From: Promethearchaeum syntrophicum
GTDB taxonomy: Archaea; Asgardarchaeota; Lokiarchaeia; Sigyniarchaeales; Promethearchaeaceae
NCBI RefSeq assembly: GCF_008000775.2
Contig: NZ_CP042905.2
Coordinates: 600,001 to 632,000, forward strand
Length of the DNA stretch: 32,000 nucleotides
Direction of reading: 5' to 3'
Below the pieces are notes generated by a model. That model was not told the DNA's origin, made no database searches, and saw only the letters and a list, made by a program, of their open reading frames with translations. Both the position numbers and the translations under genes were made by a program. This document shows positions 6,707-29,842 of this stretch, in pieces; the first letter of the stretch is position 1, and each line of letters opens with the position of its first letter.

Positions 6707-9469
6707 ATGAGCAATGAAGAAAATAAGAAAGCTGATATCAAACTTAAGAAAAGTCACGTAATGATTGCAATATTAATAGGAACAATTGTACTTGGTATTG
6801 GTGCTTTGCGCCTACTTCACCATGATTTCAATATTGTAAGTCTGTATAACGATGATGAAATCGAATTTGATGTTTATGTTTCAGGATCGTATGCGTATGT
6901 AACGATATATCAGGATGGTTTAAAGGTTCTAGATATTTCCGATCCGACCAATCTGGTGGAAGTGGGACATTTTGATGATGGTGATGGTGGTGCAGAAAAG
7001 GTTTTTGTTTCGGAATCGTATGCGTATGTGGCGACAGATGAGGATGGTTTAAAGGTTATTGATATATCCGATCCCACCAATCCGGTGAAAGTGGGACATT
7101 TTGATGATGGTGATTATCCAGAAAGTGTTTATGTTTCTGGTTCATATGCTTATGTAGGGTATAATTATGATGCTGAAGGTTTGAAGATTATCGACATTTC
7201 CAATCCAACATCCCCCACGAAGGTTGGATTCTTTGACGATGGCAGTGATTATGCGCAAAATATTTATGTTTCCGGATCGTATGCTTACATAGCGGAAGCT
7301 GGGGATGGTTTGGCGATTCTCAACATTTCCAATCCAACAACTCCCACGAAAGTGGGACATTTTGATGATGGATTTGTACAGGATGTTTATGTTTCGGGAT
7401 CGTATGCGTATATTGTGGTAGGTAGTGATGGGTTAGCAATACTTAACATTTCTGATCCGACCGATCCAGTGGAAGTGGGGTATTTTGATGGTAGTGGTGG
7501 TGCAGAAAGTGTTTATGTTTCGGGATTGTATGCGTATGTGGCGACAGATGAGGAAGGTTTAAAGGTTATTGATATTTCCGATCCGACCAATCCAGTGGAA
7601 GTAGGACATTTTGATGATGGGGGAAATCTTAAAGAAGTGTTTGTGATCGGAGGTTATGCCTACGTTATCGATTGGAGAGATGGTTTGGAAATCATTGATC
7701 TTTGGAGCCCAAAAGAAAAAATTTCAAATAATATTCTATGGGGAATTATGGGTATTCTCATTTTTCTCACTCTGGTTGATCTCCGGGGCCTTATCAAGGA
7801 AGCTCTACCAATCTGGGAAGATTATCGAGATTTCAAGGATGAAGGGAAGAGAATAAAAATATTGGGTATATGTAAGGGTTTTTTCTTGACAATAGGAATA
7901 CATTTGGTTAATTTAATTATCCTTCTTCTATTTTGGAAACATCCCGATCCATATACATATCAAGTTATTCTAAAGTTCCTTATATTACCACTATTTATAA
8001 TATCCGTAGTAATTAACATTAAAATAATAACTCGAACTCTCAGACGAAATCGTATATACTTTTTCCTTGGATTGATATTTCCGTATTTAATGGCATTGCT
8101 TATTGGAATTTTCTTAATAATAAATTATATCATTATAAATGTTAGTCCAGGAACACTTCTTGTGAAAAATCCACAAGTTCACATAATTGTTCTTGGGTCA
8201 CTTAGCCTATCCCTTGGTATTCTATTGTTATTAATGTTAAAGATATATTCTAAAGAACAAGGGGATGGTCATCTAAAAGGAGAAAAAATGAAAGATGAAG
8301 AAAGAGAAAAAGAAGAAAAAAAGAAAATCGATACCAAACTCAAGAAAAGTCAGATTAATGCTGTGATATTATTAATCGGGTTAGTAGGACTTATTATTGG
8401 AGCAAGTTTTCTTCTTTATCATAATTTCAATATTATCGGGTATGTTGATAATGGTGGATTGGCAAATGATATTTATATTTCGGGGTCGTATGCGTACGTA
8501 GCGGATGGTCGTGATGGTTTAGAGATCATTGACATTTCTGAACCGACCGATCCAGTACAAGTGGGACAAATCTATGATGGTAGTGGAAATGCAAATAGTG
8601 TTGCTATTTCGGGGTCGTATGCGTACGTGGCGGATGGAACCGATGGTTTAGAGATTATTAACATTTCCGACCCGACCGCCCCCGTAAAAGTGGGAGAATT
8701 TTATGATGATAGTGGGGAGGCACTTGGCGTTGCTGTTTCGGGATCGTATGCGTACGTGGCGGATGGTCGTGATGGTTTAGAGATCATTGACATTTCCAAT
8801 CCGACCGATCCAGTACAAGTGGGTCAATTTGGACATTTCTATGATTATGGATATAGACGGGATGTTGCTGTTTCGGGGTCGTATGCGTACGTAGCGGATG
8901 GTCTTAATGGTTTAGAGATCATTGATATTTCCGATCCCACCACTCCTGTGGAAGTGGGACAAATTTATGATGGTGGAGATTCATATGGTGTTTCTGTTTC
9001 GGGATCGTATGCGTACGTGGCGGATGGTCGTGAAGGCTTAGAGATCATTGATATTTCCGATCCCACCACTCCCGTGGAAGTGGGACAAATCTATGCTGAT
9101 AAAGGATCTGCACGCGGTGTTTATATTTCGGGTTCGTATGCTTATGTCGCCCATAGTGAACATGGCTTAGAGATCGTTGACATTTCCGATCCGGCCAATC
9201 CGGTTGAAGTGGGAAACATCAATAGTTATAGTGGAAATGCACGTGGTGTTTCTGTTTCGGGTTCGTATGCTTACGTGGCGGATGGTCGTGGTGGTTTAGA
9301 GATTATCGATCCTTGGAGCTCAATAGAAATAATATCCAATATCATTCTTGGAATTCTAATCTTTCTGGTATTGGTGTTGATCTTCATTACATATTTAAAG
9401 AATTTTTACCACTCTAACGAGGATGTATCCAAAAAGATGGAGTATCAAAAATTGAATAATGATTATTGA
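6707..9469 (+). CDS. Membrane protein with two seven-repeat LVIVD (beta-propeller) modules separated by a polytopic TM region
   Basis: 920 aa with 7+7 repeats of SGSYAYVA..DGL.IIDISDPT.PV.VG. Both modules start with a basic segment plus TM helix (KKADIKLKKSHVMIAILIG.. and KKIDTKLKKSQINAVILLIG..) and end with D(L/P)WS plus a TM helix. Confidence 0.85.
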   Translation: MSNEENKKADIKLKKSHVMIAILIGTIVLGIGALRLLHHDFNIVSLYNDDEIEFDVYVSGSYAYVTIYQDGLKVLDISDPTNLVEVGHFDDGDGGAEKVFVSESYAYVATDEDGLKVIDISDPTNPVKVGHFDDGDYPESVYVSGSYAYVGYNYDAEGLKIIDISNPTSPTKVGFFDDGSDYAQNIYVSGSYAYIAEAGDGLAILNISNPTTPTKVGHFDDGFVQDVYVSGSYAYIVVGSDGLAILNISDPTDPVEVGYFDGSGGAESVYVSGLYAYVATDEEGLKVIDISDPTNPVEVGHFDDGGNLKEVFVIGGYAYVIDWRDGLEIIDLWSPKEKISNNILWGIMGILIFLTLVDLRGLIKEALPIWEDYRDFKDEGKRIKILGICKGFFLTIGIHLVNLIILLLFWKHPDPYTYQVILKFLILPLFIISVVINIKIITRTLRRNRIYFFLGLIFPYLMALLIGIFLIINYIIINVSPGTLLVKNPQVHIIVLGSLSLSLGILLLLMLKIYSKEQGDGHLKGEKMKDEEREKEEKKKIDTKLKKSQINAVILLIGLVGLIIGASFLLYHNFNIIGYVDNGGLANDIYISGSYAYVADGRDGLEIIDISEPTDPVQVGQIYDGSGNANSVAISGSYAYVADGTDGLEIINISDPTAPVKVGEFYDDSGEALGVAVSGSYAYVADGRDGLEIIDISNPTDPVQVGQFGHFYDYGYRRDVAVSGSYAYVADGLNGLEIIDISDPTTPVEVGQIYDGGDSYGVSVSGSYAYVADGREGLEIIDISDPTTPVEVGQIYADKGSARGVYISGSYAYVAHSEHGLEIVDISDPANPVEVGNINSYSGNARGVSVSGSYAYVADGRGGLEIIDPWSSIEIISNIILGILIFLVLVLIFITYLKNFYHSNEDVSKKMEYQKLNNDY
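8440..9300 (+). repeat. Highly similar ~126-140-nt intragenic tandem repeats (LVIVD units of module B)
   Basis: Strings such as tcggggtcgtatgcgtacgt(a/g)gcggatggtcgtgatggtttagagatcattga(c/t)atttcc recur at about 8471, 8611, 8740, 8875, 9001, 9129 and 9257. Confidence 0.85.
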
Positions 9470-9974: not shown

Positions 9975-10103
9975 GATTTAAGTATTTAGATTTAGTAATA
10001 AAATAAAATATTTATGCTGAAATTTTTGATTGAATGTATGGCATTACAATGCCCCTGAGATTTACCCTGTTGGGGTGGATTTATTTTTAGTTTTTTCCTA
10101 TAA
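9971..10103. repeat. Direct repeat R1 (left boundary of island); csp downstream/terminator region
   Basis: ttaagatttaagtatttag..tttatgctgaaatttttgattgaatgtatggcattacaatgcccctgagatttaccct..ggggtggatttattttt recurs at 22311-22434. By eye there are about 6 substitutions plus a 6-nt and a 5-nt indel. Confidence 0.9.
10040..10096 (+). terminator. Putative csp terminator: two short hairpins followed by T-runs
   Basis: ggcat-taca-atgcc (10040-10053), then accc-tgttg-gggt (10064-10076), then ttatttttagtttttt. Oligo-T tracts are known archaeal termination signals. The stems are short. Confidence 0.35.
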
Positions 10104-10105
10104 TC

Positions 10106-10168
10106 TTACTTATAATTTAAATTGAGTTGGTAGATTCTCCCAGTAGATGCCCAGAGCGACCTGTTTTT
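10106..10168 (-). pseudogene. Scrap homologous to the 3' end of the GNAT gene at 22438..22980
   Basis: ataatttaaattgagttggtagattctcccagtagatgcccagagcgacc aligns by eye with agaatttaatctgtgagtgaatattctcccagaagaaacccaaagcatcc (22440-22490). Similarity decays after about 60 nt. Confidence 0.5.
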
Positions 10169-10202
10169 AATTATTGGTTATGCTACACTTTACATGTAAA
10201 CA

Positions 10203-10271
10203 GAGGTAGAGTACGAAGTCGTTGAGGGAGAGAATGGTCTTTATCAATTTTGGAATAGAAAATTTATTTAG
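10203..10271 (+). pseudogene. Detached 3'-end fragment of a divergent csp allele
   Basis: It reads [22 protein letters not shown], against the intact csp [34 protein letters not shown]. Nucleotide identity is obvious (gtagagtacgaagt.gttgagggaga). It is 36 nt shorter, in frame, and has its own stop at 10269-10271. Confidence 0.7.
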
Positions 10272-10295
10272 GTAGAGAAAAAATTTAATAATGAG

Positions 10296-11921
10296 ATGCA
10301 ATTAAATGCACTACATTTCTCGGACTTACATTTTGGGCAATATAATTTAAAAGAAGAAGAAAAGAAGAGAGGAGATTTTGATAATTTCTTTTCCAATTTG
10401 CTACTTCAGTTGAAGAAAATTATTGTATCAGAGAAAATAAACCTAATCATCATATCTGGGGATTTTTGTTCAAGAAATCAATTTGAGGAGGATATCTTGA
10501 TTTCTTCAAACAAATATCTCGATGAATTTATAAACGTTTTCAAAGAAAAAGACATTTCAGTATTAATTTGTATAGGTAATCATGAAATTTCTCGTTCAAT
10601 GGATCATTCAAAAAGACAGAAATTATACTTTGAATTAATAAATCACATAAAAAAAGATCTAAATATCAATTTTTCAAAAAATTTTAATCGAAATATAATA
10701 TCATATAAGATTTTCAAACAACAACAAAAAATTTTCTTTAGCATGGATAGTACCTTCAGTTTGACAAAAGAAGGGGAATGGGAAAATTCAAGTTTAAATC
10801 TGAAGGATATAGATGAATTTCTTAATGAAATAAATTCCCAAATAAATCTAACAAATTATGATAAATACATTATATCTCATCATGGACTTTTAGACATGCC
10901 CAATAATCAAGATATAATCGAAGGTTTACATGCTCGAAAAATCTATTACATATTTTCAGGACACAAACATGATAAATATTACATACCTTTTCATATTCCT
11001 GGAGAAAAACTACCTATTAATAATTATATTGCTGGGTCAATTCTTCTTTCTCAAAAACGGAGAGCAGAATCAAAATCTTGGATTCCCGCAGATCTTCAAT
11101 TTAATCAATATTCTTTTGAAAAAAGTTATAGTAAAGATATTGTTAATGCTTGGTATTGGCGTTATAATTCAAATGCACGATGGGTTAAAGAAGAATTAAA
11201 AATAAATCGAGAAGATAATGGTACTAAATGCGGAATTTTTTCTCAAATGGTTCCAAATTATAAAGAATCTTTTGATTTCCTTCTTGATATTAATCAAAAA
11301 TTTGATGAAAATTCTCAATGTATTACCAGTTGGGAAGATATAAACAAAGATATTCTGAATTTTTCTCAAAAAATTCATAATAATAATAAATTAAAAAAGA
11401 TTTTATTTGATGGGAATACGCACCTCTCAATAGGGTTCTCATTCGGGTATCAATTTAGACAAACAACTGGATATAAAATTTCGTACAAAAATCAATTAAC
11501 TAATCAAACATGGAATCTTGAAGAATTGAATTTTTCGGAAATAGGTCCAGATTTGGAAATAGATGTTGATATCGGCGATGAAGATAATAAATATTCAGTT
11601 ATAATAATTAATATTGGAAGTCGTGATGTAGTAAATCCAACTAAAGAATATCTTCTGAATAAAAAAATCAAATTTGAGAAATTGTTAAGTTTCAAATATT
11701 CACCAACCCTAACTACTCAAATAATTACTCCACTAATAAATTCCATAATTGATACAATTTCAAATGAGATTTCGAATTATAAAAAATATTATTTGTTTAT
11801 TGCTGGTCCACTTGCATTTTTTGGATTGTTGGCTACAAAATTTAATATGATAACACCATTACAATTACATGAATTTAGCCGAACAGAGAAAAATTATTTT
11901 CCAAGCATGTTGTTAATTTAA
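10296..11921 (+). CDS. CBASS effector candidate: calcineurin-like metallophosphoesterase fused to a C-terminal SAVED-like sensor domain
   Basis: 541 aa. The MPE motifs occur in order: FSDLHFG (DxH), IISGDF (GD), CIGNHE (GNHE), ISHHG, FSGHKHD (GHxH). The C-terminal ~200 aa end in KKYYLFIAGPLAFFGLLATKFN..LQLHEF, the hallmark SAVED ending. The gene lies directly upstream of the CD-NTase. Confidence 0.7.
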   Translation: MQLNALHFSDLHFGQYNLKEEEKKRGDFDNFFSNLLLQLKKIIVSEKINLIIISGDFCSRNQFEEDILISSNKYLDEFINVFKEKDISVLICIGNHEISRSMDHSKRQKLYFELINHIKKDLNINFSKNFNRNIISYKIFKQQQKIFFSMDSTFSLTKEGEWENSSLNLKDIDEFLNEINSQINLTNYDKYIISHHGLLDMPNNQDIIEGLHARKIYYIFSGHKHDKYYIPFHIPGEKLPINNYIAGSILLSQKRRAESKSWIPADLQFNQYSFEKSYSKDIVNAWYWRYNSNARWVKEELKINREDNGTKCGIFSQMVPNYKESFDFLLDINQKFDENSQCITSWEDINKDILNFSQKIHNNNKLKKILFDGNTHLSIGFSFGYQFRQTTGYKISYKNQLTNQTWNLEELNFSEIGPDLEIDVDIGDEDNKYSVIIINIGSRDVVNPTKEYLLNKKIKFEKLLSFKYSPTLTTQIITPLINSIIDTISNEISNYKKYYLFIAGPLAFFGLLATKFNMITPLQLHEFSRTEKNYFPSMLLI

Positions 11922-11990
11922 ATTAATAAACCACAAAACCACATTTTTATAAATTCAAGTTTTATTTTGAATAATAAGGGGTAAAAAAAA

Positions 11991-12977
11991 ATGGCAAAAA
12001 CTGTATCTGCTGCTTTTGAAGAATTTAAAACTTTAATTGAGCCATCTCCAGAAGAAAGGAAAAAAATTATTACTCGACATGAATATATTCGCAATAATAT
12101 ATCAGAATTCATTACTCTTGATAAGAACAATAGTAGTTTTCTATCAGGTTCTTATATTAGATCTACTCAGATAACACCCGTAAATGATGTTGACATAGTA
12201 TTGGTTTTAGACAAAGATACTTATTATGATAAATATAAAACTGAAATTGTAAAACTATTAGAACATATAAAACGAATGTTGAAAAAACTTGGAAATTATC
12301 AGACAACAGAAATGCGAAAACAAACTCATTCTATTGGGATGTTGTTAAGACATGGAGCGAAAGTAGATATTGTTCCTGCATTTTTAAAGAATTCGGAAGA
12401 AAACATATATGAAATACTTGATAAGGATAAGAATTGCTATATCGAAACCGCTCCACAGAATCATAAAGAATTGATTTCAAATTATAATAAAGAAATCAAT
12501 AACTTCATTCCAGTAGTCAAAATGTTAAAAAATTGGAAAAATACTATAAATAATCAACTAATTAATGATAAGTTCAAGATAAAATCTTTTCATTTAGAAT
12601 TGTTAGCGATAAATGCAATTAATAATAGTTTCAGTGGATACCGTGATGGAATAATTCAATTTTTCCAAAATGCAGAACAATTAACCCTAAAAAAGTTAGA
12701 AGATCCATTAGGTATTAGTGGAGATATTTCTTCATATTTATCATCTGAACAAAAAAAAACTTTAAATGAAAAAATAGAAGCAATTAACGAAAAAATCAAT
12801 AAATTACGTGATTATGAATCAAAGGGAGAACATCAAAAAGCAATTTCTGGGTGGAGACAGATTCTCGGTCACCCATTCCCAGATAAAGAAAAATCAACAT
12901 CCCAGAATAATCAAACTCAAGAAAAAAGAGAGACAAAACATCCAAAACATGGGAAGAATTATATATTTGGGAAATAA
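11991..12977 (+). CDS. cdn: cGAS/DncV-like nucleotidyltransferase (CD-NTase, SMODS-type)
   Basis: 328 aa. Pol-beta NTase core LSGSYIRSTQITPVNDVDIVLVLD (GS...DxD; Asp codons 12186-12188 and 12192-12194) with the third acidic residue in GAKVDIVPAF. Followed by Cap2 and Cap3. Long polar C-terminal tail ending ..NYIFGK. Confidence 0.85.
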   Translation: MAKTVSAAFEEFKTLIEPSPEERKKIITRHEYIRNNISEFITLDKNNSSFLSGSYIRSTQITPVNDVDIVLVLDKDTYYDKYKTEIVKLLEHIKRMLKKLGNYQTTEMRKQTHSIGMLLRHGAKVDIVPAFLKNSEENIYEILDKDKNCYIETAPQNHKELISNYNKEINNFIPVVKMLKNWKNTINNQLINDKFKIKSFHLELLAINAINNSFSGYRDGIIQFFQNAEQLTLKKLEDPLGISGDISSYLSSEQKKTLNEKIEAINEKINKLRDYESKGEHQKAISGWRQILGHPFPDKEKSTSQNNQTQEKRETKHPKHGKNYIFGK

Positions 12978-12986
12978 AATATTAAA

Positions 12987-14792
12987 ATGAATCGAACTCA
13001 ATATTTGAAATTATTAAATAATCTATCTACATTGAAAGATGGGTATAATATTAAACAAATTTCATATGGAAAGAATAAAATAATTAGCGCTCGGTTTAGA
13101 TATGGGGAAAATGATATTAAATATGCCAAAATATTTATATCAGACGAATTTCCTCTAATTCCTCCAAAGGTATGGTTGTTTGATGATATAAGATTAGAAA
13201 AAATATCAGATTTTCAATGGACTACTCATAAGAATTCTGACGATTCAATTTGTTTATTTACTGGATCGTTAAGTGATAATAGCTGGCGTTATCAAGATTC
13301 AATTTTTAAAATCTTTTTAAAAATCGAAGCTTTTCTCACTCAATGCCTTTCCAATACGATATCAGACGATCATTCAACTATATTCTATCCTGTACCAGGA
13401 AGACCTCAAGATCCTGTAGTTTTTATGTTTTATGAGGACTTTCATGAAGCTAAGAAAAATTCTGAAAATGAATTATTTCTATATTCGTTTTTAGACAATA
13501 GACCTGCGTTTTTACTTACATTAAAAAAAAATAAAAATGATTTTGATGTGATTAAAGAAAAATATGGATGGATTATTAATCCATATTATCAAAAAGCGTA
13601 TATTGTATTTTTAAATACAAATATATTAGATTTTAGAAGAAATTTAAAAGGTGAAATTAATTTTGAGAAAATTGTATCAGAATATTTAGAAGAGAATATC
13701 AATCTCTCAAATTATGATTATTTTGCCTTTTTTTTTAAAGATAGTGTCATTTCCGATGAACTCATTATAAAAACTTCCCAATTCAATCCTCTTTTATCCT
13801 ATCTATATGATTTAAAAGGAAAGAAGTTTGAAAATATTAATAAAATTCCTCATTTTAAAATAATCGGATTTAACCCTACTTATGATCTTTATCAAAGAAC
13901 TTATGGAGTTTTAGAAAAAATGATTGATTCAATTGAAGAAAAATCTTTATTAATTATAGGACTTGGTTCTATGGGCTCAACAATTGCGCTTGAATTGGCT
14001 AAATCAGGATTCAGGAAATTTAGTTTAGTAGATCCAGATATCCTAAATCCAGTGAACGTTTGCAGACATATTGGATTTTTATCAGATATTGGGAAACACA
14101 AAGTAGAGATTGTTAGAGAACAGATTATGCAAAAAAATCCATATGCAGATGTTGTTCCCTATCCAAATGATTTATTTTTGAACAAAAACTTGCCAATCTT
14201 AGCACATCTTATCAAAGAATCCGATATAATTATTGATACGACCGCAGTTGAATCTGTTGGTATGCTGATAAATAAATTTGCATTAGAGTTAAATAAAGTA
14301 GCTATTTATTGTTATTGTTATCGTAATGCTATTCTTGGAAGAATTTTTAAAGTAATTCCAAAAAGAACTCCTTGTTATAGTTGTGTTCAACAGAGTTTAA
14401 TGAAAGACGAAGGTTATTTTTCTAGTTTGGGAAAAAATTCTTCCGAGGATGATGATTTGAATGGAAATGTATATTTCGAAGGATATTCTGAACCAGGGAT
14501 ACCTGGAATAAGTATCGATATTAATTTTGTAAATTTATTTGTATGCAAATTCATTATTGAAACGTTAAAAAAAGAATTACATCAAATTCCGATGTTAAAA
14601 GCAGATCATTATTTGTGGCAAAATTCCCCAACTAAGTATGGAAATGAGCAGGTTGGTTTTATTCCTATTGGTGACGAAATTCAAAAGGATCGAAACTGTA
14701 AGTTTTGTGGATCTTCTTTAAAATTACAGAATTCTGGAAAACATCGTAAAACCGAACAAAAGATCCAAAAACTCGAAAAAAAACTTAAATAA
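12987..14792 (+). CDS. cap2: Cap2: fused E2-like (UBC) and E1-like (ThiF/MoeB adenylation) enzyme
   Basis: 601 aa. E2 signatures: FPLIPPKVWLF (compare eukaryotic YPxxPPKVxF) and TTHKNSDDSICLF (HxN...C). E1 Rossmann: LLIIGLGSMGSTIALELAKSGFRKFSLVDPDILNPVNVCRHIG. Cys pairs: CYSC and CKFCG. Confidence 0.9.
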   Translation: MNRTQYLKLLNNLSTLKDGYNIKQISYGKNKIISARFRYGENDIKYAKIFISDEFPLIPPKVWLFDDIRLEKISDFQWTTHKNSDDSICLFTGSLSDNSWRYQDSIFKIFLKIEAFLTQCLSNTISDDHSTIFYPVPGRPQDPVVFMFYEDFHEAKKNSENELFLYSFLDNRPAFLLTLKKNKNDFDVIKEKYGWIINPYYQKAYIVFLNTNILDFRRNLKGEINFEKIVSEYLEENINLSNYDYFAFFFKDSVISDELIIKTSQFNPLLSYLYDLKGKKFENINKIPHFKIIGFNPTYDLYQRTYGVLEKMIDSIEEKSLLIIGLGSMGSTIALELAKSGFRKFSLVDPDILNPVNVCRHIGFLSDIGKHKVEIVREQIMQKNPYADVVPYPNDLFLNKNLPILAHLIKESDIIIDTTAVESVGMLINKFALELNKVAIYCYCYRNAILGRIFKVIPKRTPCYSCVQQSLMKDEGYFSSLGKNSSEDDDLNGNVYFEGYSEPGIPGISIDINFVNLFVCKFIIETLKKELHQIPMLKADHYLWQNSPTKYGNEQVGFIPIGDEIQKDRNCKFCGSSLKLQNSGKHRKTEQKIQKLEKKLK

Positions 14793-14812
14793 TTTAATAT
14801 GGGTGCTTTGAA

Positions 14813-15271
14813 ATGAAAAGAAAGAAACTTCAATTTTCAACAGAAATTATTCATCAGCTATTTGCTGAAATAAAAAATGAAAGAGTTGAGAATTGTGGTG
14901 CTTTAATAGGAAAGCAAATAGATAGCACTTTGTTTAGAGTGACTAATTATGTTAAAGATGATAAACCAATATTTCAATCAAGATTCAACATTCAACGGAA
15001 TACGAATAATTTATATCATTTGATTAATGAAATTGTTAAAAAAAAAGAAGAAGAAGTTGATTATATAGGTGAGTGGCACTCACACCCAAATTCTTCATGT
15101 ATTTATAGTCAAATCGATTTTCTAACCATGAATATGATGATTAATGACCCTGATTACTCCTTTTTAAATGAGATCATACTATTTATTGTAGGAAAAAACC
15201 GTTGTATGAATGCTTTTCTTTTTAGTAAGTCTCGAAATCGACCTATTTCATTAAAAATAATTGTAAAATAA
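14813..15271 (+). CDS. cap3: Cap3: JAB/JAMM (MPN+) isopeptidase
   Basis: 152 aa. Upstream Glu in VENCGALIG, and the JAMM motif GEWHSHPNSSCIYSQIDFLT (HxHx7Sx2D). Confidence 0.9.
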   Translation: MKRKKLQFSTEIIHQLFAEIKNERVENCGALIGKQIDSTLFRVTNYVKDDKPIFQSRFNIQRNTNNLYHLINEIVKKKEEEVDYIGEWHSHPNSSCIYSQIDFLTMNMMINDPDYSFLNEIILFIVGKNRCMNAFLFSKSRNRPISLKIIVK

Positions 15272-15352
15272 TATCAGATTTTTCAATTATGAGAAAAATT
15301 TCTTACTCTTGATTCATAGGGAAGGTAATTTTTATATTACAATGAATAAACA

Positions 15353-17260
15353 ATGAATATGAGTTTCATTCTTAAAAAGATAAAAATAGAAAATTATAGA
15401 TGTTTTAAGGAATTCGAGTTCGATTTATGTGAGTTTAATACAATTGTTGGGAAAAATGCAACAGGAAAATCTTCTTTACTCTATGCTATTAATGAAATTA
15501 ATAATGAAAAGCTTTCTAAAGAGACAATTTATAATGATTATAAAGAAAATGAAATCCAAAGAATTTCTTTCTTTTTTTCAGGAATTATAGAAAATTCCTC
15601 TATAAAAATTCGAGATCCAATTCTGATTTTAACTGACGAGGGTTATAAAATAACGTATTTCGAACTGTTTCTAAAAATATCAGAAGTTAAAATGATAAGT
15701 CCCAAAGAAAATTTTCGGTATAATGGAACAAATGAGAGTTTAAAACAAGTAAAACTACAAAATCTTTTGGAAATTAAAAATAAAAAGGAATTTATTTTTC
15801 AATCAAAAGATTGGAATCCAATTCATGAAGTTAAGTCCAAATTTAATTTTATATTGAAAAATTGGACTCTCCCAAGTCTAATTTTTTTTATTGACAGCAA
15901 AGCTATACTACAAACTCATGATTTTAGTAAAATTGAAAGCTCTTCTAATTTCAAAGAAATTCTAATTGATTTAGCCAGACCAAAGGTAATTTTCTTTAGT
16001 GAAAATATTTTGAATCAAAATATTAATTCAAGTTATAATTTTTTATCGTTTAATGAAAACTTCAACTTTACACTGAAACTTCTGAAATTAGGAGAAATTG
16101 ATCGAGAAAAGTTTCAGAAATTAAGTGAAAGTGCAAAAGAAAATATGATTGAGAACATTGAAGCAAAATTTAATGAAATTTTTCTTAATCAACCATATCC
16201 AGTATCTATGATCCAATTTTCATTTCAATTCATTAAAGATAACTTTAGTTTCAAACCTAGATTGAAGAATGGTAAAAAAATTGAATTTGAAAACCTTAGT
16301 GCAGGTCTTCGATGGTTATATACGTTTATCTTGGTTTTCTTTGATCCGTTGATTCATGATGATATAATTGAAAAATTTGATCATAGAATTATTTTGATAG
16401 ATGAACCGGGGAAAAACATCCATCCAGAGGCACAAATGGAAGTGCTAGAATATTTAAAACTCATGAATAAAAACAACCAAATAATTTATTCTACACATAT
16501 GCCCTTTTTAATTGATTATTCCAACCCAAATAGTGTTCAATGTATTTCCTATGTTCAAAATACTCAAAAGCACGAAATTTCTAATGGAAAAGCGTCGGAT
16601 TTAAAAATACGAATTGCAGATGCAATTGGATTACCTAAAGAAAGATTTCTAACATTTCCAGAAAAGATTCTCCTTGTGGAAGGTCCAAGTGATAGAGTAT
16701 TTATTGAAAGAATAAATGAGTATTTTCATGAAATAAATAACAAATTAGCACAATCATCGGAAATTGAGATTTGGTTTTACCATGGTCTTTCTGAAATTAA
16801 TCATCTTTGCAAACTTTTTGATAGTTGGAAAAGAAGGAATTTTCTTCTTCTATATGATGATGATACTGATCTATTTTCCAAAGGAAAGGTAAAAGATCCA
16901 AAAGATGAACCTGAAGTACAGAAATTTCGCCGTAATATTGTGAAATTAACACACCCCGCTATAAAAAAGAATATTGCAATAGAAGATTTTATTCCACGAA
17001 CTTTATTTAATTCAACGTTAAAAAAATGGTTAAAGAGTTATGGGTATGAGAAAGATTTTCTCAAAGATGTGCAAAACGATATTAAAGATCCACAAGTAAA
17101 TCAAAGTCAAATTATTTCCAGATTAGAAAAAGAAGAACAATTGAGTAAGTTAGAATTCATTAAACTCATATTTGAAACTGAAAATCAGAAATTATTTACT
17201 GAAAATTTGAAAATAGTATATCTATTTCAATTAATTACTGAAAAATTTAGAAAAATATAG
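15353..17260 (+). CDS. OLD-family nuclease: N-terminal ABC-type ATPase plus C-terminal Toprim domain
   Basis: 635 aa. KIKIENYRCFKEFEFDL..NTIVGKNATGKSSLLYAI (Walker A), LSAGLRWLYTFIL (signature-like), RIILIDEPGKNIHPEAQ (Walker B), IIYSTHMPFLI (H-loop). Toprim: KILLVEGPSDRVFIE, then FLLLYDDDTD, then IEDFIP. Confidence 0.8.
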   Translation: MNMSFILKKIKIENYRCFKEFEFDLCEFNTIVGKNATGKSSLLYAINEINNEKLSKETIYNDYKENEIQRISFFFSGIIENSSIKIRDPILILTDEGYKITYFELFLKISEVKMISPKENFRYNGTNESLKQVKLQNLLEIKNKKEFIFQSKDWNPIHEVKSKFNFILKNWTLPSLIFFIDSKAILQTHDFSKIESSSNFKEILIDLARPKVIFFSENILNQNINSSYNFLSFNENFNFTLKLLKLGEIDREKFQKLSESAKENMIENIEAKFNEIFLNQPYPVSMIQFSFQFIKDNFSFKPRLKNGKKIEFENLSAGLRWLYTFILVFFDPLIHDDIIEKFDHRIILIDEPGKNIHPEAQMEVLEYLKLMNKNNQIIYSTHMPFLIDYSNPNSVQCISYVQNTQKHEISNGKASDLKIRIADAIGLPKERFLTFPEKILLVEGPSDRVFIERINEYFHEINNKLAQSSEIEIWFYHGLSEINHLCKLFDSWKRRNFLLLYDDDTDLFSKGKVKDPKDEPEVQKFRRNIVKLTHPAIKKNIAIEDFIPRTLFNSTLKKWLKSYGYEKDFLKDVQNDIKDPQVNQSQIISRLEKEEQLSKLEFIKLIFETENQKLFTENLKIVYLFQLITEKFRKI

Positions 17261-17575
17261 TTTAATGATCAGAATATATAAGAAACCAACCTTTTTTATC
17301 CATTTACTAAATTTAGTGATGAAAGTCTTTATCAATTTTATTACAGATTATATTGTTTACAAAATTAGTAAGTGAAAAATAGAATCCCAATCTTCCAAAA
17401 ATTCATTAAACAAAATTATATTTTTAATAACGATTAAATAATAATTCGGTTTCGGAATTTGGTTTCAAACTACTCATTTTTTTGAAGAAACATTAAAAAG
17501 AATTAGGTTTGAAAGAATATATTTTAGTAAAATCATAGTAATATTTTTTTATAATAAATATAACTTGTATATAAA

Positions 17576-18742
17576 ATGGATCAAAATAAAAATAGAGATG
17601 CTAATATCATTGAAGCGTTTATGTGCAAGTGTATCAAAAGTAATCCTAAAAATTATAATTTATTCTGGCTTTGTGATGATGATGGTCTTTCAGCGAAGAA
17701 TGATATTATTACAATAATAAAATCTATGCTTGGTGAAAATAATATTCTTTTTATTTCACTCAATGATATTAATTCGGATTATATTCTGCATGATAATAAT
17801 TCTCTATTTTCACTTTTTGTAAGGATTCCCCAACCTCATGAAAATCATTCACTTGAATTAAGTGGCCTTATGAAAATTATCGATAATATGAATATTAAGT
17901 TTAAATTGAATAATGGAAATTTAATTGATACAAAGATCTATTTTCAGATAACATTAATATCAGATTTTGATCCTTTCATATATATAAAGAAAAAAGACTA
18001 CAGTTGGGTAATTTCAAATATTATTTTCATCAAGATTTTTAAAAGAATGGAATTTGGCATCACAAATAAAATCATTAAAAAGGAATTAGATGGTATTTTT
18101 TCATATTTAATTAATTCAGTGTTTCATGAAGCAGATAATATTATTTCTGATCAAAAACAATTCCAGATTTTATTTTCAAACTATTTAACAGAAATTCTTC
18201 CTGATATAAATCTTGAATCTCATATTGAAAATATTAAAAACGAAATAATGAACAGAATCAACTTAAATGAAATCATTCAGAATCACCTGATGGAACGGGT
18301 ATTGAACTGTATTCTCTCTTTTTATAGTGCTCATCAAGTAGAACCATTATTTGAATCTGGAAAAAAAGTATTTGAGAAAGAATTTCACAAAAGAGTTTAC
18401 TCTCATCTCTATCCTCTCTTAGGAACAAATATTGAAAATCATAAGAAAGTGGGCAAAGGAGATATTGATTTTTTAATATATAATTATCCTCTAGATGTTA
18501 AAGTTGAAGAAAAAGATCAGAAATTGGAGGAGATATATTTAAATCATAAAGATCAAATAATCCAATATTGTTATTACCGAAAGGAAAGAGTAGGTTTTCT
18601 TTTAGTATACGAAAATACGATAAAGAAACCAAATTTTGAGAAAAAAGATTACAAGGTATTCCAAGAAGATGGAATTTATGTAATAATCATTCTTTTGCGT
18701 GGTAATTTTCCATATCCAAGTAAAATGAAATCTCAAAAATGA
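17576..18742 (+). CDS. Uncharacterised protein with C-terminal PD-(D/E)xK nuclease-like motif set; N-terminus weakly resembles a degenerate P-loop NTPase
   Basis: 388 aa. C-terminus: EKEFHKRVYSHLYPLLG..GKGDIDFLIYNYPLDVKVEEK..DQIIQYCYY, which gives E, D, DxK and QxxxY in canonical order. N-terminus: NLFWLCDDDGLSAKNDIITIIKSMLGENN sits where P4/D5-type NTPases carry GxGxNGKST...LxG. Preceded by a 315-nt AT-rich gap. Confidence 0.5.
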   Translation: MDQNKNRDANIIEAFMCKCIKSNPKNYNLFWLCDDDGLSAKNDIITIIKSMLGENNILFISLNDINSDYILHDNNSLFSLFVRIPQPHENHSLELSGLMKIIDNMNIKFKLNNGNLIDTKIYFQITLISDFDPFIYIKKKDYSWVISNIIFIKIFKRMEFGITNKIIKKELDGIFSYLINSVFHEADNIISDQKQFQILFSNYLTEILPDINLESHIENIKNEIMNRINLNEIIQNHLMERVLNCILSFYSAHQVEPLFESGKKVFEKEFHKRVYSHLYPLLGTNIENHKKVGKGDIDFLIYNYPLDVKVEEKDQKLEEIYLNHKDQIIQYCYYRKERVGFLLVYENTIKKPNFEKKDYKVFQEDGIYVIIILLRGNFPYPSKMKSQK

Positions 18743-19125
18743 ATGAAAAAACTATTTAAATTGTTGATCTTGTTATGAATGTTAGAAAATAATTCATTAT
18801 GTAATGGTTTGAATGAGAACCTTTTTAAAAAACATGTCAAATCATTTCTATTTAAAGAAAACTATAGTATTAGTTTAGAAAATTACTTGAAATTGGTAAT
18901 AGAAATTAAAGATATATCAATCGTTTTTAATTGATTGAAATTTCGTTTAAATCAAAAAATTATAATATCTCAATATTTTTCAAGAATTTTTCATGATTTT
19001 CTTTTTCATACAACGAATTCCTTTCAGTTTTATTCTAAATGCCTCTTATTTCCGTATATTGATGATACATTGAATGAAAAAACGTTTTTAGAAAATTTAA
19101 AAAAAAGAAAAAATTCCTATAGAAT

Positions 19126-22100
19126 ATGAGTAATGAAAATCCATTTGAAGTTTATGATTTAAATGAAATATTGAAATCAGATATTCCGCATATAATACAA
19201 AAGAATAATAGTGAATTATTAGAAAATAATTTCAAATTAAATCCTCAAAATTATTCTACATATCAAATTAATATAATTCAGAATATACAAGAAAAATTGA
19301 AAAAACAAGAATTAGATATTGGAGATAAAATATTTGCATTGGAATTAATTCTAATTTCCATAGAATTAGATTTTGATATAGATAATTCAACCAAAGATTT
19401 AATATGGGAATTTATGATTAATCATATTCTTCCAACAGGTGCATTAAATTGGGAAAAGTATAAAATTCTTTTAAAAATTGTTAAAGTTGAAGATATCAGC
19501 AATATAATTGAAAAAAATCCTGCATTAAGTGAATTATTTTTTGATGCTTATCCCGAAAGAAATGCTGAATTTTTTAAAATATGCATTAAATATGAGAAAT
19601 GGGCGATAGCTCGAAAAATTTTAGAAAATTATAATAATTTGATACCCGAAAATTTAGAAGATGTAAAAAAATTGTTTGAAAATTATTATATCAATCATTC
19701 AACACTAAAGAAAATGCAAAATAATCTTGATCCATCGATTCTAAATGAATTAAATGGTATTAGAATCAAAAGAAAAGAAAATTGGATTGAACAATTACAG
19801 ATAAAATTAAAAATTATTGAGGAAGAAGGTATCAATCCGAAAAAAGATATGTATCAGTTACAATATAATTTATCATTTATAATAGACACTTTTTCAGGAT
19901 TAGAACTTGAAAAAATTTCTATAGATTGTCTTAATGCTTTAAAAAATCCATCAAATGATAGGTGGGTCAATATGATTTTATTAGAAATTATATTTTTTAA
20001 TAGTAAGATTATCTCTTCCTTAATCCCTCGCATTGAGGAGTATGGTTTTGAAAATCTTCTTTTTTTTTATTATTACAATAATCCTGATTTACTTCTAGGT
20101 AAACAAACTTCTTGGTTCGTTAAATACAAAGATCGAGGATTAGATATTGCAAAAATTTACCTAAGTCGGTTAGGATACGAAAATAGACCTACTATGCATT
20201 TATTTTCATTATTTATTTCTAATGATTTTCAACCAATTGAAGCTCTTCTAGAATTATGTTTGACAAATTCTTCCACTAAATCAGAAATCCAAGAAATAAT
20301 AATGGAAAAAATAATATCCATAGATTTTTCAAGAATTAAAGAAATTCCTAATGGGATCTCTTATTTGACTATTCTACTTAATAATCATGGCTTTTCCGAA
20401 TGGTACTTTAAATTTCCGATAGACTTTTCTATAAAGAAAATATTAGAATTAAAAGACAATTGCGAAGAACTACATGAATTTCTCAATGGGACAACATTTT
20501 GGGATATTGTAAGCAGAATGGAGTCCAAATTCCATCAATTTTTTATTAACCTTCTTATTGATAAGAACCAAAAGTCTATTTTATATTTAATTGATTCATA
20601 TCCTGAAATATTTATGGCAAATATTGATATTTTTATCACTAAAATCTCTGAAAGAGATAATATGACTTCAAGTGATTTGAAAATTATTAATTTACTTTTA
20701 AAAAAGAAATCAATTTCATTTACTATAGGAAAAGATTTGAATAAATTTATTGAAATGAAACAACTAAATTATCAAAAAGTAAGATTGTTGCACACATTGG
20801 GAAAATATTCTGAATTAATTGATTTAATTATAGAATTGATGAATCTTCCTTACATTAATCCAAAATTCAAGATAATATTGTGGTTGGATTATATTTCATT
20901 ATGCCTAGAATATTCATTAGAAGATCTAAACGAAGAATTTGTTAAACAATTAATATTTTCCATTAATAATTGTTATGAAAAGAGTAAATCCGCTTTTTCT
21001 CATAATGATTGGGATTTTTTTCTCAAATATTATTATATAATTGGTAGATTATATCTTGTGCAATATCAAAAAAATCCAGATGAAGATAAAAATCATTTAC
21101 TTGAAAAATCAAAACAATTATTTATTGAAGGATTAAAATATTCTACTGATATTGAAACAAACTCTCTTCTTTCAGAATTAATTATTGTAACAGAAATCGA
21201 TCTCAGTGCAAAATCTCTAAAAAAAGATATTACAAAGTTTACACATTTATCATTATTAAATGATTTTTTGATTAGAACTAATCCTCCTCTTTTTTCAATA
21301 GAAAGAAATATATTGACTGCTTGCTTCCATCTTGAAATTGCAGAAAAAAATAGCAAAAATCCTCTATTTAGCTGGGATAAAAATAAAAAACTTATATACA
21401 CATGGGATTATTTACCTCCTTTTGATGAAAAATCTCCTCTTTTTAGGTTAATGATACATAAATCAATAATAACTGAAAAATTACAAAATTATTCTCTATT
21501 AATTAGAAGTAAATTGAAGATTAACGAAGAAAATGAAATTCCCATTTCGATGGGAGTGCAATCAGATTGGTATGTTGCAGAATTTAAATTAAATTTATTC
21601 GATGTTGATTCTTTATCTGCATTTGAACTATTTTTCAAAAAAAAGGATGATTTTCCTTCTTATGAAGCAAATCTTCCTTTAATAGGTAAAATTATTCCAA
21701 AAGAAATGCATTTAATGGAACTAATCGAAAGAGAAATTGTATTATGCTGTGAAATAATTCAAAATAGGCATATTATATTAAAAAAAAATTTAGAAATTCC
21801 TTTAAATGATTTATTGACTGATTTTTTAAGACAAGGACTTAAAACATACAATATTGATGTTAATCAAGAACAGAGAGGTGGAAAATCTAAAAAGATTGAA
21901 GGAGAAATAGATATATCTTTCTATTATCAAGGAGGGCATCGTATTACTATTTTAGAAGCATTATTATATAACAACACTCATGTAGAACATTATGAGAAAT
22001 TGGTCAAAAATTATGATGCTATTGGTCGATTAAGAAATTTCATTTTAATTTATTATATTGGTGATAGTTTCTACCAATTTGTTGAAAACTACAAAGAAAA

Positions 22101-22248
22101 TATATCTAAATCTAAAATATTTGAAAGATTTGAACCATATAGGCGAACTTTTGATTCCACAGAAATACGAATTTTAAAATCAATTCAGAAGAATTTTAAT
22201 TCTAAATTTAATGTCATTCATTTTATTGTACACTTAAGAAATCCTTGA
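19126..22248 (+). CDS. Large (1040 aa) uncharacterised, apparently all-helical protein with C-terminal nuclease-like domain related to that of the 388-aa neighbour
   Basis: Long uninterrupted ORF with no P-loop or other catalytic motif in the first ~900 aa. The C-terminus IEGEIDISFYYQGGHRITILEALLYNN..HYEKLVKNY..FILIYYIGD parallels GKGDIDFLIYNYPLDVKVEEK..QIIQY..GFLLVYENT in the neighbour. Confidence 0.5.
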   Translation: MSNENPFEVYDLNEILKSDIPHIIQKNNSELLENNFKLNPQNYSTYQINIIQNIQEKLKKQELDIGDKIFALELILISIELDFDIDNSTKDLIWEFMINHILPTGALNWEKYKILLKIVKVEDISNIIEKNPALSELFFDAYPERNAEFFKICIKYEKWAIARKILENYNNLIPENLEDVKKLFENYYINHSTLKKMQNNLDPSILNELNGIRIKRKENWIEQLQIKLKIIEEEGINPKKDMYQLQYNLSFIIDTFSGLELEKISIDCLNALKNPSNDRWVNMILLEIIFFNSKIISSLIPRIEEYGFENLLFFYYYNNPDLLLGKQTSWFVKYKDRGLDIAKIYLSRLGYENRPTMHLFSLFISNDFQPIEALLELCLTNSSTKSEIQEIIMEKIISIDFSRIKEIPNGISYLTILLNNHGFSEWYFKFPIDFSIKKILELKDNCEELHEFLNGTTFWDIVSRMESKFHQFFINLLIDKNQKSILYLIDSYPEIFMANIDIFITKISERDNMTSSDLKIINLLLKKKSISFTIGKDLNKFIEMKQLNYQKVRLLHTLGKYSELIDLIIELMNLPYINPKFKIILWLDYISLCLEYSLEDLNEEFVKQLIFSINNCYEKSKSAFSHNDWDFFLKYYYIIGRLYLVQYQKNPDEDKNHLLEKSKQLFIEGLKYSTDIETNSLLSELIIVTEIDLSAKSLKKDITKFTHLSLLNDFLIRTNPPLFSIERNILTACFHLEIAEKNSKNPLFSWDKNKKLIYTWDYLPPFDEKSPLFRLMIHKSIITEKLQNYSLLIRSKLKINEENEIPISMGVQSDWYVAEFKLNLFDVDSLSAFELFFKKKDDFPSYEANLPLIGKIIPKEMHLMELIEREIVLCCEIIQNRHIILKKNLEIPLNDLLTDFLRQGLKTYNIDVNQEQRGGKSKKIEGEIDISFYYQGGHRITILEALLYNNTHVEHYEKLVKNYDAIGRLRNFILIYYIGDSFYQFVENYKENISKSKIFERFEPYRRTFDSTEIRILKSIQKNFNSKFNVIHFIVHLRNP

Positions 22249-22310
22249 AACTTTCATATATTTATAATAATAAATTTTCTCACATTTTTTTGCTTTTATC
22301 ATTTCATTTT

Positions 22311-25537: not shown

Positions 25538-26002
25538 ATGAAGTTTTCAAAACTTATTCAAAAAAAGCAGAAAAAACCATCTAAAAAGTTCAAAAAACCT
25601 AAAGGAGCAATTTGGATTTTCTTCAGCTACACCACAAAAGATCTCAAAGAATTTCATATTAAAGGACTGGCAAAGGCTCTTGAGAAATATGATGAGTATG
25701 ATCAAGTTCTGATTTTGAAAGAAAAAACCACAGATAGTATTATTGAAAACATGGATTTTTATATTAAAAATGTAAATGCTTTGGTGCTCTTTTGTAGTAA
25801 AAGTTCAAAAATATCTGAAGCGGTTCAAAACGAATGGGAATCGGCAGAAGCTATAGGGATACCAATTATTCCAGTATTTAAAACTACTAATCACGTACCC
25901 GCACTTCTAAGGGCGAAAAATGGAGTTAATTTCACAAAAAATCCCCTACAAAATACAATAAATAAATTACATGAAAATCTCCAGCGAAAAATAATAAAAT
26001 AA
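25538..26002 (+). CDS. Small TIR-like domain protein with polybasic N-terminus
   Basis: 154 aa. KKQKKPSKKFKKPKG is followed by IWIFFSYTTKD, ALVLFCSKSSKISEAVQNEWESA and IPIIPVF. This is the TIR_2-type pattern (FxSYxxxD ... S.W...E ... iiPV). Confidence 0.6.
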   Translation: MKFSKLIQKKQKKPSKKFKKPKGAIWIFFSYTTKDLKEFHIKGLAKALEKYDEYDQVLILKEKTTDSIIENMDFYIKNVNALVLFCSKSSKISEAVQNEWESAEAIGIPIIPVFKTTNHVPALLRAKNGVNFTKNPLQNTINKLHENLQRKIIK

Positions 26003-26091: not shown

Positions 26092-27051
26092 TTAATTTTT
26101 TATACGACACCCATTTGATTTTAATTCTTCCATCCATGAATTTATTTCTGGTTTAAATTCTTTCCAATTATTTTCTTCTAACCAGAAAGTTCTTAGATTT
26201 TTTAATTTAATTATGGAAACAGGTAATTCTGATAGATTATTTTTCGAAATTATCAAATTAGAAAGTTTACTAAGATTTCCTATCCATTCCGGCAATATTG
26301 ACAGCTTATTTCCGAAAATATTTAAATCTTGCAAATTAATTAAATTTTTATAAGAATCTGGGAGATTTGAAAGGTTATTTCGATATAATGACAGTTCAAT
26401 TAAATTGCGCAAATTTCCAATTTCATCAGGTAATTCAGAAATAAGGTTGTCTCCAAGAGTTAGTTCCCGTAAATTTTTTAATTCAGAGATCCATGATGGA
26501 ATTTCTGTGAGAAGATTTTTATAGAGAACTAAACGGGTTAAAAGTGTCATTAATTTAACCCATTCTGGAATTTCCTGTAAATTCAACCCGAATAGATATA
26601 AGTATTCTAAGGTTTTGATCTCTGAAATCCATGACGGAATTTCTTCTAAAGGATTTCCTCCAATATTTAGGGCTTTCAACATTGTAAAATCTTTAAACCA
26701 TTCTGGAACGATCGTAAATCCATTGTATTGAATATGCAACTGCGAAAATGCTGTTAACTGAGTTAGATTTTGGGGAAGGTTTGTTAATTTATTATTCGCT
26801 ACCCAAAGATAGTTAAGTGATTTTAAATCACCTATACTCTCGGGAATGACTTCCAACGCTTGTCCTTGTAAAGCTAAAGCTAAAATTCTCCCCTTTTGGG
26901 CAATAAATCCATACATATTCCGATTTAAGTTTTGAAGGGAGGGAATTTGGGAACCAGTAAGCACTTCAAGAGATAGTAAAAATTCATATTCCTCTTTATG
27001 AAGCGCAGTTCCGTAATAATCTTTCAACTGATTTTCATTAGGTTCTGTCAT
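26092..27051 (-). CDS. Leucine-rich repeat (LRR) protein
   Basis: 319 aa with about 10 consecutive ~23-aa LxxLPxxIxxLxxLxxLxLxxNxL units (e.g. LSELPDEIGNLRNLIELSLYRNNLSNLPDSYKNLINLQDLNIFGNKL). Its start is 2 nt after the OFOR beta stop. Confidence 0.9.
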   Translation of the reverse strand: MTEPNENQLKDYYGTALHKEEYEFLLSLEVLTGSQIPSLQNLNRNMYGFIAQKGRILALALQGQALEVIPESIGDLKSLNYLWVANNKLTNLPQNLTQLTAFSQLHIQYNGFTIVPEWFKDFTMLKALNIGGNPLEEIPSWISEIKTLEYLYLFGLNLQEIPEWVKLMTLLTRLVLYKNLLTEIPSWISELKNLRELTLGDNLISELPDEIGNLRNLIELSLYRNNLSNLPDSYKNLINLQDLNIFGNKLSILPEWIGNLSKLSNLIISKNNLSELPVSIIKLKNLRTFWLEENNWKEFKPEINSWMEELKSNGCRIKN

Positions 27052-29661: not shown

Positions 29662-29842
29662 TATTTTCGACTCACGTAAATTTTGAGTGCGCTTCAAATA
29701 AATTATGTGATTATAATTGATTGAATTTACATGTTTAAACTTAAATTTTTAAAATATGAAATTTAAAAGGGACAAAAATAAATAATAAAAAGAGGTTTAG
29801 AAAACCTATTTATAAAAATAAAAAAATTGAGGAATACTAAAA

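Follow-up and report, generated by a model that had tools for sequence, protein, structure and literature searches.

A four-gene operon in the chromosome of the Asgard archaeon Promethearchaeum syntrophicum MK-D1 begins with a gene that joins a metallophosphoesterase (MPE) to a SAVED domain, and continues with genes for a nucleotidyltransferase of the cGAS/DncV-like kind (CD-NTase), Cap2 and Cap3. The locus raises the question of what a phosphoesterase does in the effector position of an antiphage signaling system based on cyclic oligonucleotides (CBASS). We addressed it in a window of 32,000 nucleotides (contig NZ_CP042905.2, positions 600,001 to 632,000), the whole stretch of DNA analyzed here. 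The best explanation, to which we assign a probability of roughly 0.6, is a functional-looking type II CBASS on an AT-rich defense island, in which a cyclic oligonucleotide made by the CD-NTase would turn on the MPE head as a toxic output.

The operon and the MPE-SAVED family

The four open reading frames (ORFs) lie on the + strand, and the ORF listing gives intergenic gaps of 69, 9 and 20 nt, exactly as described in a first-pass annotation made by a model from the letters and ORF translations. That annotation had called the genes an MPE-SAVED effector, a CD-NTase, Cap2 and Cap3 of a type II CBASS, and had proposed profile searches and structure prediction as checks. Searches of the window proteins against Pfam, NCBIfam and PADLOC bore out the system and all four identities far beyond chance, with E-values of the domain assignments running from 1e-9 to 1e-66. 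The motifs that it had quoted for each gene were present when we re-read the DNA, and all catalytic motifs of the operon are intact. Judged by its genes and motifs, the operon is an intact and complete type II CBASS.

The suggestion of an archaeal, possibly Asgard-like host was also right. All four proteins match QEE15273-QEE15276 of P. syntrophicum, a member of the Promethearchaeota, exactly, and the contig that they match is a chromosome of 4.32 Mb. The flanks hold housekeeping genes (IscS, NifU, ferritin, rubrerythrin, 2-oxoacid:ferredoxin oxidoreductase (OFOR) and a cold-shock protein). The accompanying statement that CBASS is rare in such hosts is outdated: surveys list CBASS among the defense systems of Asgard archaea, where they find it enriched, its phylogenies point to several transfers from bacteria to archaea, and in a 2026 preprint P. 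syntrophicum already has the entry "CBASS type II", with a bacterial donor inferred. The host identity and the presence of CBASS in this genome are thus already on record. New here are the MPE-SAVED effector, which is rare, Asgard-linked and also found at a type III-B CRISPR (clustered regularly interspaced short palindromic repeats) locus, the apparent pro-form tail of the CD-NTase, and the canonical-type features of the E2 domain; they leave the basic picture of CBASS unchanged.

The effector is the product of the operon's only sensor-bearing gene. Pfam Metallophos covers its residues 6-226 (E 2.7e-12) and Pfam SAVED its residues 356-538 (E 3.2e-11). The SAVED assignment recurs with NCBIfam (2.7e-12) and with the PADLOC SAVED effector models (to 3.7e-16, for SAVED_PDDEXK), and the domain aligns to A. 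baumannii Cap4 in the PDB (6VM6, E 6e-4).

Proteins with both halves are rare. When 1.84 billion representative proteins were searched exhaustively by HMMER with a profile built from the window effector and its close relative P0028, only two full-length matches came back, namely the window protein itself and P0030 (E 2.4e-119). P0028 came from a separate word-indexed search, so that three full-length MPE-SAVED proteins are known. The word-indexed homologue searches found only two relatives of the effector and two of Cap2, and a repeat with a Cap2 profile added none; the AT-rich, low-complexity composition probably limits shared words. Apart from the full-length matches, the MPE and SAVED halves match separate protein sets. 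A metagenome scan found only MPE proteins without SAVED, and a genome-collection scan with six MPE sequences did not return MK-D1 itself. A viral scan for the effector found nothing and therefore gave no sign of a virus-borne effector.

Each half has its own distribution. The SAVED half matched more than 100 proteins with other heads in the exhaustive search, and in the relatives that we checked the head is a Cap4-like endonuclease (P0038) or an HNH domain (locus L004), or is matched by protease/LmuA models (P0036), by PDC-M58A (P0035) or by no PADLOC model (P0045). In the loci of the nearest Cap2 and CD-NTase relatives, L004 and L022, the gene order is again effector, CD-NTase, Cap2, Cap3; the effectors there have closely related SAVED domains behind a Cap5-like HNH head (L004) and a Cap4-like endonuclease head (L022). 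At the level of gene order and domain matches, these orthologous operons swap head modules on a conserved backbone. The MPE half, up to about residue 305, recurs with different partners: in proteins with signal transduction ATPase with numerous domains (STAND) and leucine-rich repeat (LRR) modules (MPE-STAND-LRR; P0037, a Helarchaeota protein in locus L005), in LRR-MPE (P0032) and MPE-nSTAND3 (P0050) proteins, and in stand-alone or unknown fusions. Its close relatives with a named source come from Asgard metagenome-assembled genomes (MAGs) of Lokiarchaeota, Helarchaeota and Promethearchaeota, and bacterial matches are weak. The Helarchaeota gene (L005, 5944-9072, MAG JAHPZH010000008) encodes a 1042-aa protein equivalent to PADLOC PDC-S60, with a separate LRR protein encoded upstream. 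Its architecture is that of nucleotide-binding leucine-rich repeat receptors (NLR-like), with a phosphoesterase head.

The two other full-length members point to the signal that the family senses. A complete cmr1-6 operon (type III-B, locus L019), whose Cas10 keeps the GGDD motif, ends 126 nt upstream of the P0030 gene. P0030 therefore has both marks of a type III accessory effector, a SAVED gene inside a type III locus and an intact Cas10 cyclase motif, which the window gene does not. The P0028 gene, in locus L002, is flanked by the gene for a Cap2 orthologue (38% identity, convergent) and adjoins one for a distant OLD-like ATPase (25% identity, E 9e-7). To our knowledge, the products of Cas10 enzymes are only cyclic oligoadenylates. 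Because the family serves both Cas10 and CD-NTase, the effector's ligand is likely a cyclic oligoadenylate as well.

Further CRISPR elements stand at these loci. Directly after the P0030 gene, the 37-nt repeat ATTTCAATTCCCTTGATGGGATTTAGAGTGTTTCTGG occurs more than 130 times in a CRISPR array that runs off the end of the locus (L019, 12053-21661). The closest Cap2/CD-NTase operons stand back to back with type III CRISPR loci (L022, 5223-12478; L003, 3560-7257) that encode Cas6, RAMP and Csm4 proteins and, in L022, Csm2 and Cas10 as well; the csm gene row of L022 is interrupted by a gene for a 573-aa LRR protein. In this lineage, as far as gene content tells, CBASS is repeatedly found next to type III CRISPR.

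The remark of the first-pass annotation that a SAVED-coupled metallophosphoesterase has not been characterized agrees with the searchable literature, in which we found such a protein only as a listed fusion, in a review that names calcineurin-like phosphoesterase among the domains fused to SAVED. We found no report in that literature that places an MPE-SAVED protein in a CBASS or type III CRISPR context.

Predicted chemistry of the MPE head

Five motifs (D10-L-H12, G55-D56, G94-N-H-E97, H195-H196 and G222-H-K-H225) and an alpha/beta sandwich place the effector head in the calcineurin-like metallophosphoesterase superfamily. Across 28 homologues, G55, D56, G94, N95, H96, H195, G222, H223 and H225 are invariant, and D10, H12 and H196 nearly so. 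An AlphaFold2 (AF2) model of the head by itself (residues 1-320) had a predicted local distance difference test (pLDDT) score of 87.5 and a predicted template modeling (pTM) score of 0.89. Foldseek returned 170 fold matches in the PDB at E <= 1e-3, and all 50 listed were MPE-superfamily enzymes. By template modeling (TM) score the matches were led by B. subtilis YydB (integrative model, 0.65), for which a literature search found nothing useful, and included SMPDL3A/B and acid sphingomyelinase (0.60-0.65), Lmo2642 (0.55), purple acid phosphatases (about 0.52) and Mre11/SbcD (0.43-0.51).

Which bond such a head would cut can be approached from its sequence relatives. The best match of all 28 MPE family members was the NCBIfam 'anti-phage phosphoesterase' model DS9_1 (1e-13), against which the window effector scored 41 bits (cut-off, 420). 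Calcineurin-CE conflict effectors were reportedly defined by Nicastro et al. in 2023. The MPE head likewise stands in the effector position, with DS9_1, the profile proxy for that family, matching far below its cut-off. Calcineurin-CE is a defense-associated calcineurin-like family with predicted nucleotide targeting, and in the PUA-Cal-HAD system its member converts dNDP to dNMP and cleaves NAD+ (bioRxiv 2026). Within the overall model we lean, at somewhat under even odds, toward a nucleotide-directed hydrolase over a DNA or RNA nuclease, which we regard as possible but less probable.

The competing account keeps the same CBASS and the same sensor and makes the head an Mre11/SbcD-like nuclease that degrades host and viral DNA (or RNA), as Cap4, Cap5 and NucC do. 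Nucleases are the commonest SAVED heads, and HNH or Cap4-like DNA nucleases fill the same slot in the orthologous operons. The SbcD model matched 24 of the 28 MPE family members (best 1.9e-10), several of which also matched archaeal Mre11 and PdeM models, and the family profile reached Mre11/SbcD chains at about 1e-8. However, this likeness is concentrated in about the first 100 residues, the part with metal motifs I-III, and the TM scores to Mre11 lie below those of the nucleotide and lipid phosphodiesterases. The window effector scored 20.9 bits against the SbcD model (cut-off, 77.65), we found no capping domain and no Rad50/SbcC-like neighbor, and the best defense-family match is a phosphoesterase model, not a nuclease. 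The head does not qualify as a member of Mre11/SbcD, and we consider this account less likely than nucleotide hydrolysis.

Several of the same data could be read as signs of an off switch. The best solved relative of the family profile is the cyclic-nucleotide phosphodiesterase Lmo2642 (E 6e-14, residues 29-257), and SMPDL3A-like folds rank high. An OLD-family gene begins 81 nt 3' of Cap3 on the same strand, and, as noted, a distant OLD-like gene flanks the P0028 effector. The first-pass annotation had accordingly offered as an alternative that MPE-SAVED is a signal-degrading phosphodiesterase, similar to a ring nuclease, and that killing lies elsewhere, for example in OLD. The relatives disfavor this. 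The operon would be left without an effector, and OLD has no cyclic-nucleotide sensor. No OLD gene occurs at the P0030 type III-B locus or with the operons of L004 and L022. The slot that the MPE head fills in MK-D1 is held by nucleases in the orthologous operons. The same head is the N-terminal output module of STAND-LRR proteins, which use no cyclic-nucleotide signal. These points argue that the MPE head is a toxic effector rather than a signal-degrading enzyme, and we judge the off-switch alternative improbable.

CD-NTase tail, Cap2, Cap3 and the proposed working order

The CD-NTase matched SMODS (E 2.7e-25) and a PADLOC cyclase model (E 9.4e-66), and its active-site residues (G53-S54, D66-V-D68 and D126) are invariant in four orthologues. 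In the PDB it is matched best by P. aeruginosa CdnD (6P82, E 1.4e-20), with E. coli CdnC also among the closest solved structures. Since these two enzymes and A. baumannii Cap4, the nearest solved SAVED protein, all belong to cyclic-trinucleotide systems, they are consistent with a signal of the cyclic triadenylate (cA3) type; by analogy, the CD-NTase product is most likely an oligoadenylate such as cA3.

The core of the enzyme ends at about residue 298 and is followed by a 30-residue polar tail with the end ...NYIFGK. The pattern T..P..G.N..FG is invariant in four CD-NTase relatives and is followed by 0, 1 or 4 residues (FG, FGK or FGYKKW). Jenson et al. (2023) reported Gly or Ala as the last residue in 1,583 type II CD-NTases; in MK-D1 the Gly is penultimate. 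The first-pass annotation had singled out the -IFGK tail as a candidate conjugation handle, and the conserved FG agrees with that, whereas the terminal Lys is not the reported Gly or Ala. In bacterial type II systems the Cap2 thioester is lost when the terminal Gly is removed or replaced, and Cap3 cuts a linear cGAS-GFP fusion precisely behind the final residue of cGAS. Taken with the invariant FG and its trailing residues, these properties suggest that this CD-NTase subfamily is made as a pro-form and trimmed by Cap3. So far, the role described for Cap3 is antagonistic only. If trimming is right, Cap3 would gain an activating role before Cap2 conjugation, a maturation like that needed by ubiquitin and Atg8 precursors.

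The ending of the CD-NTase has also to be weighed as possible damage. The locus might be a recently acquired, non-functional passenger, its bacterial-type machinery idle in an archaeal cell: the island is AT-richer than its flanks, the preprint infers a bacterial donor, and the last CD-NTase residue is neither Gly nor Ala. But the four ORFs are intact and every catalytic motif is kept. The closest MPE-head relatives are in other Asgard MAGs, which argues for long residence in the lineage, and residues trailing after FG recur in relatives, so the ending is not a lesion. Of the alternatives considered here we find this the hardest to credit, and we retain the reading of a functional-looking system.

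The Cap2 E1 carries GxGxxG, NVCRH and two CxxC motifs and is an adenylation domain of the standard ThiF type. ThiF covers residues 310-470 (E 2.7e-27), PADLOC E1-E2 models reach 4.6e-27, the PADLOC model PDLC00834 spans residues 20-473, and the PDB matches include the Cap2 E1 of 7TO3/7TSQ. In the E2 domain, P56, P59-K61, W63, H81, N83, C89 and W100 are invariant in three Cap2 orthologues. Alignment to human UBE2D2 with hhalign (probability 93%, 33% identity over 61 columns) pairs C89 with C85, W100 with W93, and PPKV with PPKV. The motifs behind the first-pass description of a eukaryote-like E2 are therefore real, but at profile level the domain is a prokaryotic E2: its Pfam matches are Prok-E2_B (E 1e-3) and then Prok-E2_A, both below their cut-offs, with no UQ_con match, and profile-to-PDB E-values are weak (0.01-1). 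The AF2 model of Cap2, from a 3-sequence alignment, was poor (pLDDT 49.7, pTM 0.43), and we did not use it for fold search. The E2 is thus eukaryote-like at the level of motifs only, which does not show an archaeal-eukaryotic link; we rejected it as a sign of such ancestry, the nearest Pfam families being prokaryotic.

According to the Cap2 structure paper, the E. cloacae E2 resembles ATG3/ATG10 and has neither an HPN motif nor a Trp following the Cys nor the Pro-rich motif of β3-β4. The MK-D1 Cap2 subfamily therefore differs from characterized Cap2. Its HxN, PxxPPK and Trp features bear on whether the kinship of the Cap2 fusions is with the ATG3/ATG10 branch only or with canonical E2s too. 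The last gene encodes a Cap3 with a complete JAMM motif (E26, H89-S-H91, S99, D102), matched by Prok-JAB (E 3.7e-9) and JAB in Pfam, PADLOC JAB (E 4.7e-23) and NCBIfam Cap3 (E 5.6e-10, below cut-off).

We propose the following working order. The CD-NTase would be made as a short pro-form ending ...FG-K, from which Cap3 is inferred to take off Lys328 and expose Gly327. By analogy with bacterial systems, the ThiF-type E1 of Cap2 would adenylate Gly327, and the CD-NTase would pass to Cys89 of the E2, be joined to targets and so be primed; Cap3 would also undo this conjugation, as in bacterial type II CBASS. On infection, the primed CD-NTase would make a cyclic oligonucleotide, for which an oligoadenylate such as cA3 is the likeliest candidate. 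Binding would fall to the effector's SAVED domain, which would then probably oligomerize like other SAVED effectors and turn on the MPE head. As the toxic output, the head would arrest growth through phosphodiester or pyrophosphate hydrolysis in free nucleotides or dinucleotides ((d)NDP/(d)NTP, NAD+), with DNA or RNA cleavage as a close second for the chemistry.

Some observations weigh against parts of this model. Every named-family match of the MPE head lies below its curated cut-off, and the Foldseek TM scores of 0.6-0.65 reflect a generic MPE core only; the predicted MPE substrate is therefore tentative. SbcD/Mre11 is still the second-best sequence relative of the head. The clade of the CD-NTase, and hence its product, is taken from nearest structures at about 25% identity. 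No invariant Cys was found in the E1 crossover (residues 467-499) among the three Cap2 orthologues, so the E1 thioester step may differ. A fuller reading joins all the parts: MPE-SAVED as a new class of cyclic-oligoadenylate effector, common to Asgard-lineage CBASS and type III CRISPR, that kills or arrests cells by nucleotide or NAD+ depletion, together with a Cap3-trimmed pro-CD-NTase and an E2 with canonical UBC features. We offer this combination tentatively and doubt that it will hold in full.

Were it correct, phosphoester or pyrophosphate hydrolysis by an MPE would be a new chemistry downstream of cyclic-oligonucleotide signaling, adding a dimetal phosphoesterase to outputs that now comprise nucleases, NADases, proteases and pores. 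One MPE head would then link three immune architectures: CBASS, type III CRISPR and NLR-like STAND proteins. MK-D1 is one of few cultured Asgard archaea, so a complete CBASS is open to study in its real host.

Genomic surroundings and known systems

Table 1. Coordinates of the CBASS operon, its domains and neighboring features in the window.
Feature	Coordinates	Strand	Description
Effector gene (541 aa, QEE15273)	10296..11921	+	MPE head (N-terminal) and SAVED sensor (C-terminal)
MPE head, residues 1 to about 305	10296..11210	+	Five metal-binding motifs, AF2 model, MPE-superfamily fold matches
SAVED sensor, residues about 300-541	11193..11921	+	Predicted cyclic-oligonucleotide receptor; Pfam, NCBIfam, PADLOC, 6VM6
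CD-NTase (328 aa, QEE15274)	11991..12977	+	SMODS, PADLOC cyclase, 6P82; active site G53-S54, D66xD68, D126
CD-NTase polar tail, residues 299-328	12885..12977	+	Beyond the core aligned to P. aeruginosa CdnD; F326-G327-K328-stop; candidate conjugation handle
Cap2 (601 aa, QEE15275)	12987..14792	+	E2 (N-terminal), linker, ThiF-type E1 (C-terminal)
Cap2 E2 domain, residues 1 to about 140	12987..13406	+	PLIPPKVW 56-63, H81-K-N83, catalytic C89, W100
Cap3 JAMM isopeptidase (152 aa, QEE15276)	14813..15271	+	E26, H89xH91x7S99xxD102
OLD-family ATPase/TOPRIM nuclease	15353..17260	+	AAA_15 and OLD TOPRIM; PADLOC Old E 1e-24
AT-rich island	about 10000..22300	.	GC 25.6% vs 33.7% in flanks; holds CBASS, OLD, two large unannotated genes

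The operon shares its island with other candidate defense genes (Table 1), and we found no tRNA or integrase in the window. We examined OLD as a component of the CBASS and rejected it: its adjacency recurs once, with a distant homologue, but it is absent from three related loci. OLD is probably a separate defense gene, not shown to be part of the CBASS, and its position probably a case of defense-island co-location. Two further island genes, at 17576-18742 (+, 388 aa, DSAG12_01103) and 19126-22248 (+, 1040 aa, DSAG12_01105), had no match in Pfam, NCBIfam or PADLOC and are candidates for unknown defense genes or OLD partners. Just outside the island, a small TIR_2-domain protein (25538-26002, +, E 1.4e-11) adjoins a convergent gene for an LRR protein (26092-27051, -). 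Neither has a PADLOC match, and they may be another immune pair; LRRs are also companions of the MPE head in the Asgard NLR-like proteins.

Upstream of the operon, a 920-aa protein (6707-9469, +) contains 14 LVIVD repeats in two blocks, each after a similar charged, Lys-rich leader, with a multi-pass hydrophobic segment between the blocks and the appearance of an internal duplication; this exact ORF is absent from the protein collection. Two ORFs differ from their GenBank models in start-codon choice only: OLD, at 635 versus 633 aa (+2), and the OFOR alpha subunit (27934-29697), at 587 versus 575 aa (+12).

Set beside the bacterial type II CBASS of V. cholerae (DncV-CapV-Cap2-Cap3) and E. cloacae (CdnD-Cap4-Cap2-Cap3), the MK-D1 operon follows the same four-part logic and has a disordered tail with a candidate Gly handle; it differs in its Asgard host, its MPE effector head and the single residue that trails the Gly. 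Its E2 has the HxN, PxxPPK and Trp features that are reported absent from E. cloacae Cap2. Human UBE2D2, a canonical UBC E2, aligns with the MK-D1 domain at PPKV, at the catalytic Cys and at the Trp beyond it; in MK-D1 the HxN starts 8 residues before the Cys, a spacing 2 residues shorter. Unlike UBE2D2, the MK-D1 E2 is fused to an E1, and its substrate would, by analogy, be the CD-NTase rather than a ubiquitin-like protein.

The effector has its own set of counterparts. Cap4 (DUF4297 nuclease-SAVED) and Cap5 (HNH-SAVED) have a homologous SAVED domain, likewise C-terminal to the catalytic head, but the MK-D1 head is a calcineurin-like dimetal phosphoesterase and not a PD-(D/E)xK or HNH nuclease. 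Use by both CBASS and type III CRISPR is known for NucC, TIR-SAVED and the Lon-SAVED protein CalpL. The MPE-SAVED family likewise stands downstream of CD-NTase (in MK-D1; the P0028 locus has Cap2) and of Cas10 (P0030), with a different catalytic head. A calcineurin-like phosphoesterase in the position of an immune effector is also found in Calcineurin-CE and PUA-Cal-HAD; the MK-D1 system has neither the PUA sensor nor the HAD partner of the latter, and its DS9_1 match is far below the cut-off. The N-terminal MPE head is homologous to that of PADLOC PDC-S60 and the Asgard MPE-STAND-LRR proteins (PDC-S60, E 5.5e-8; P0037, E 1.6e-33). Their sensor is a STAND NTPase with LRRs and involves no second messenger, whereas the sensor in MK-D1 is SAVED.

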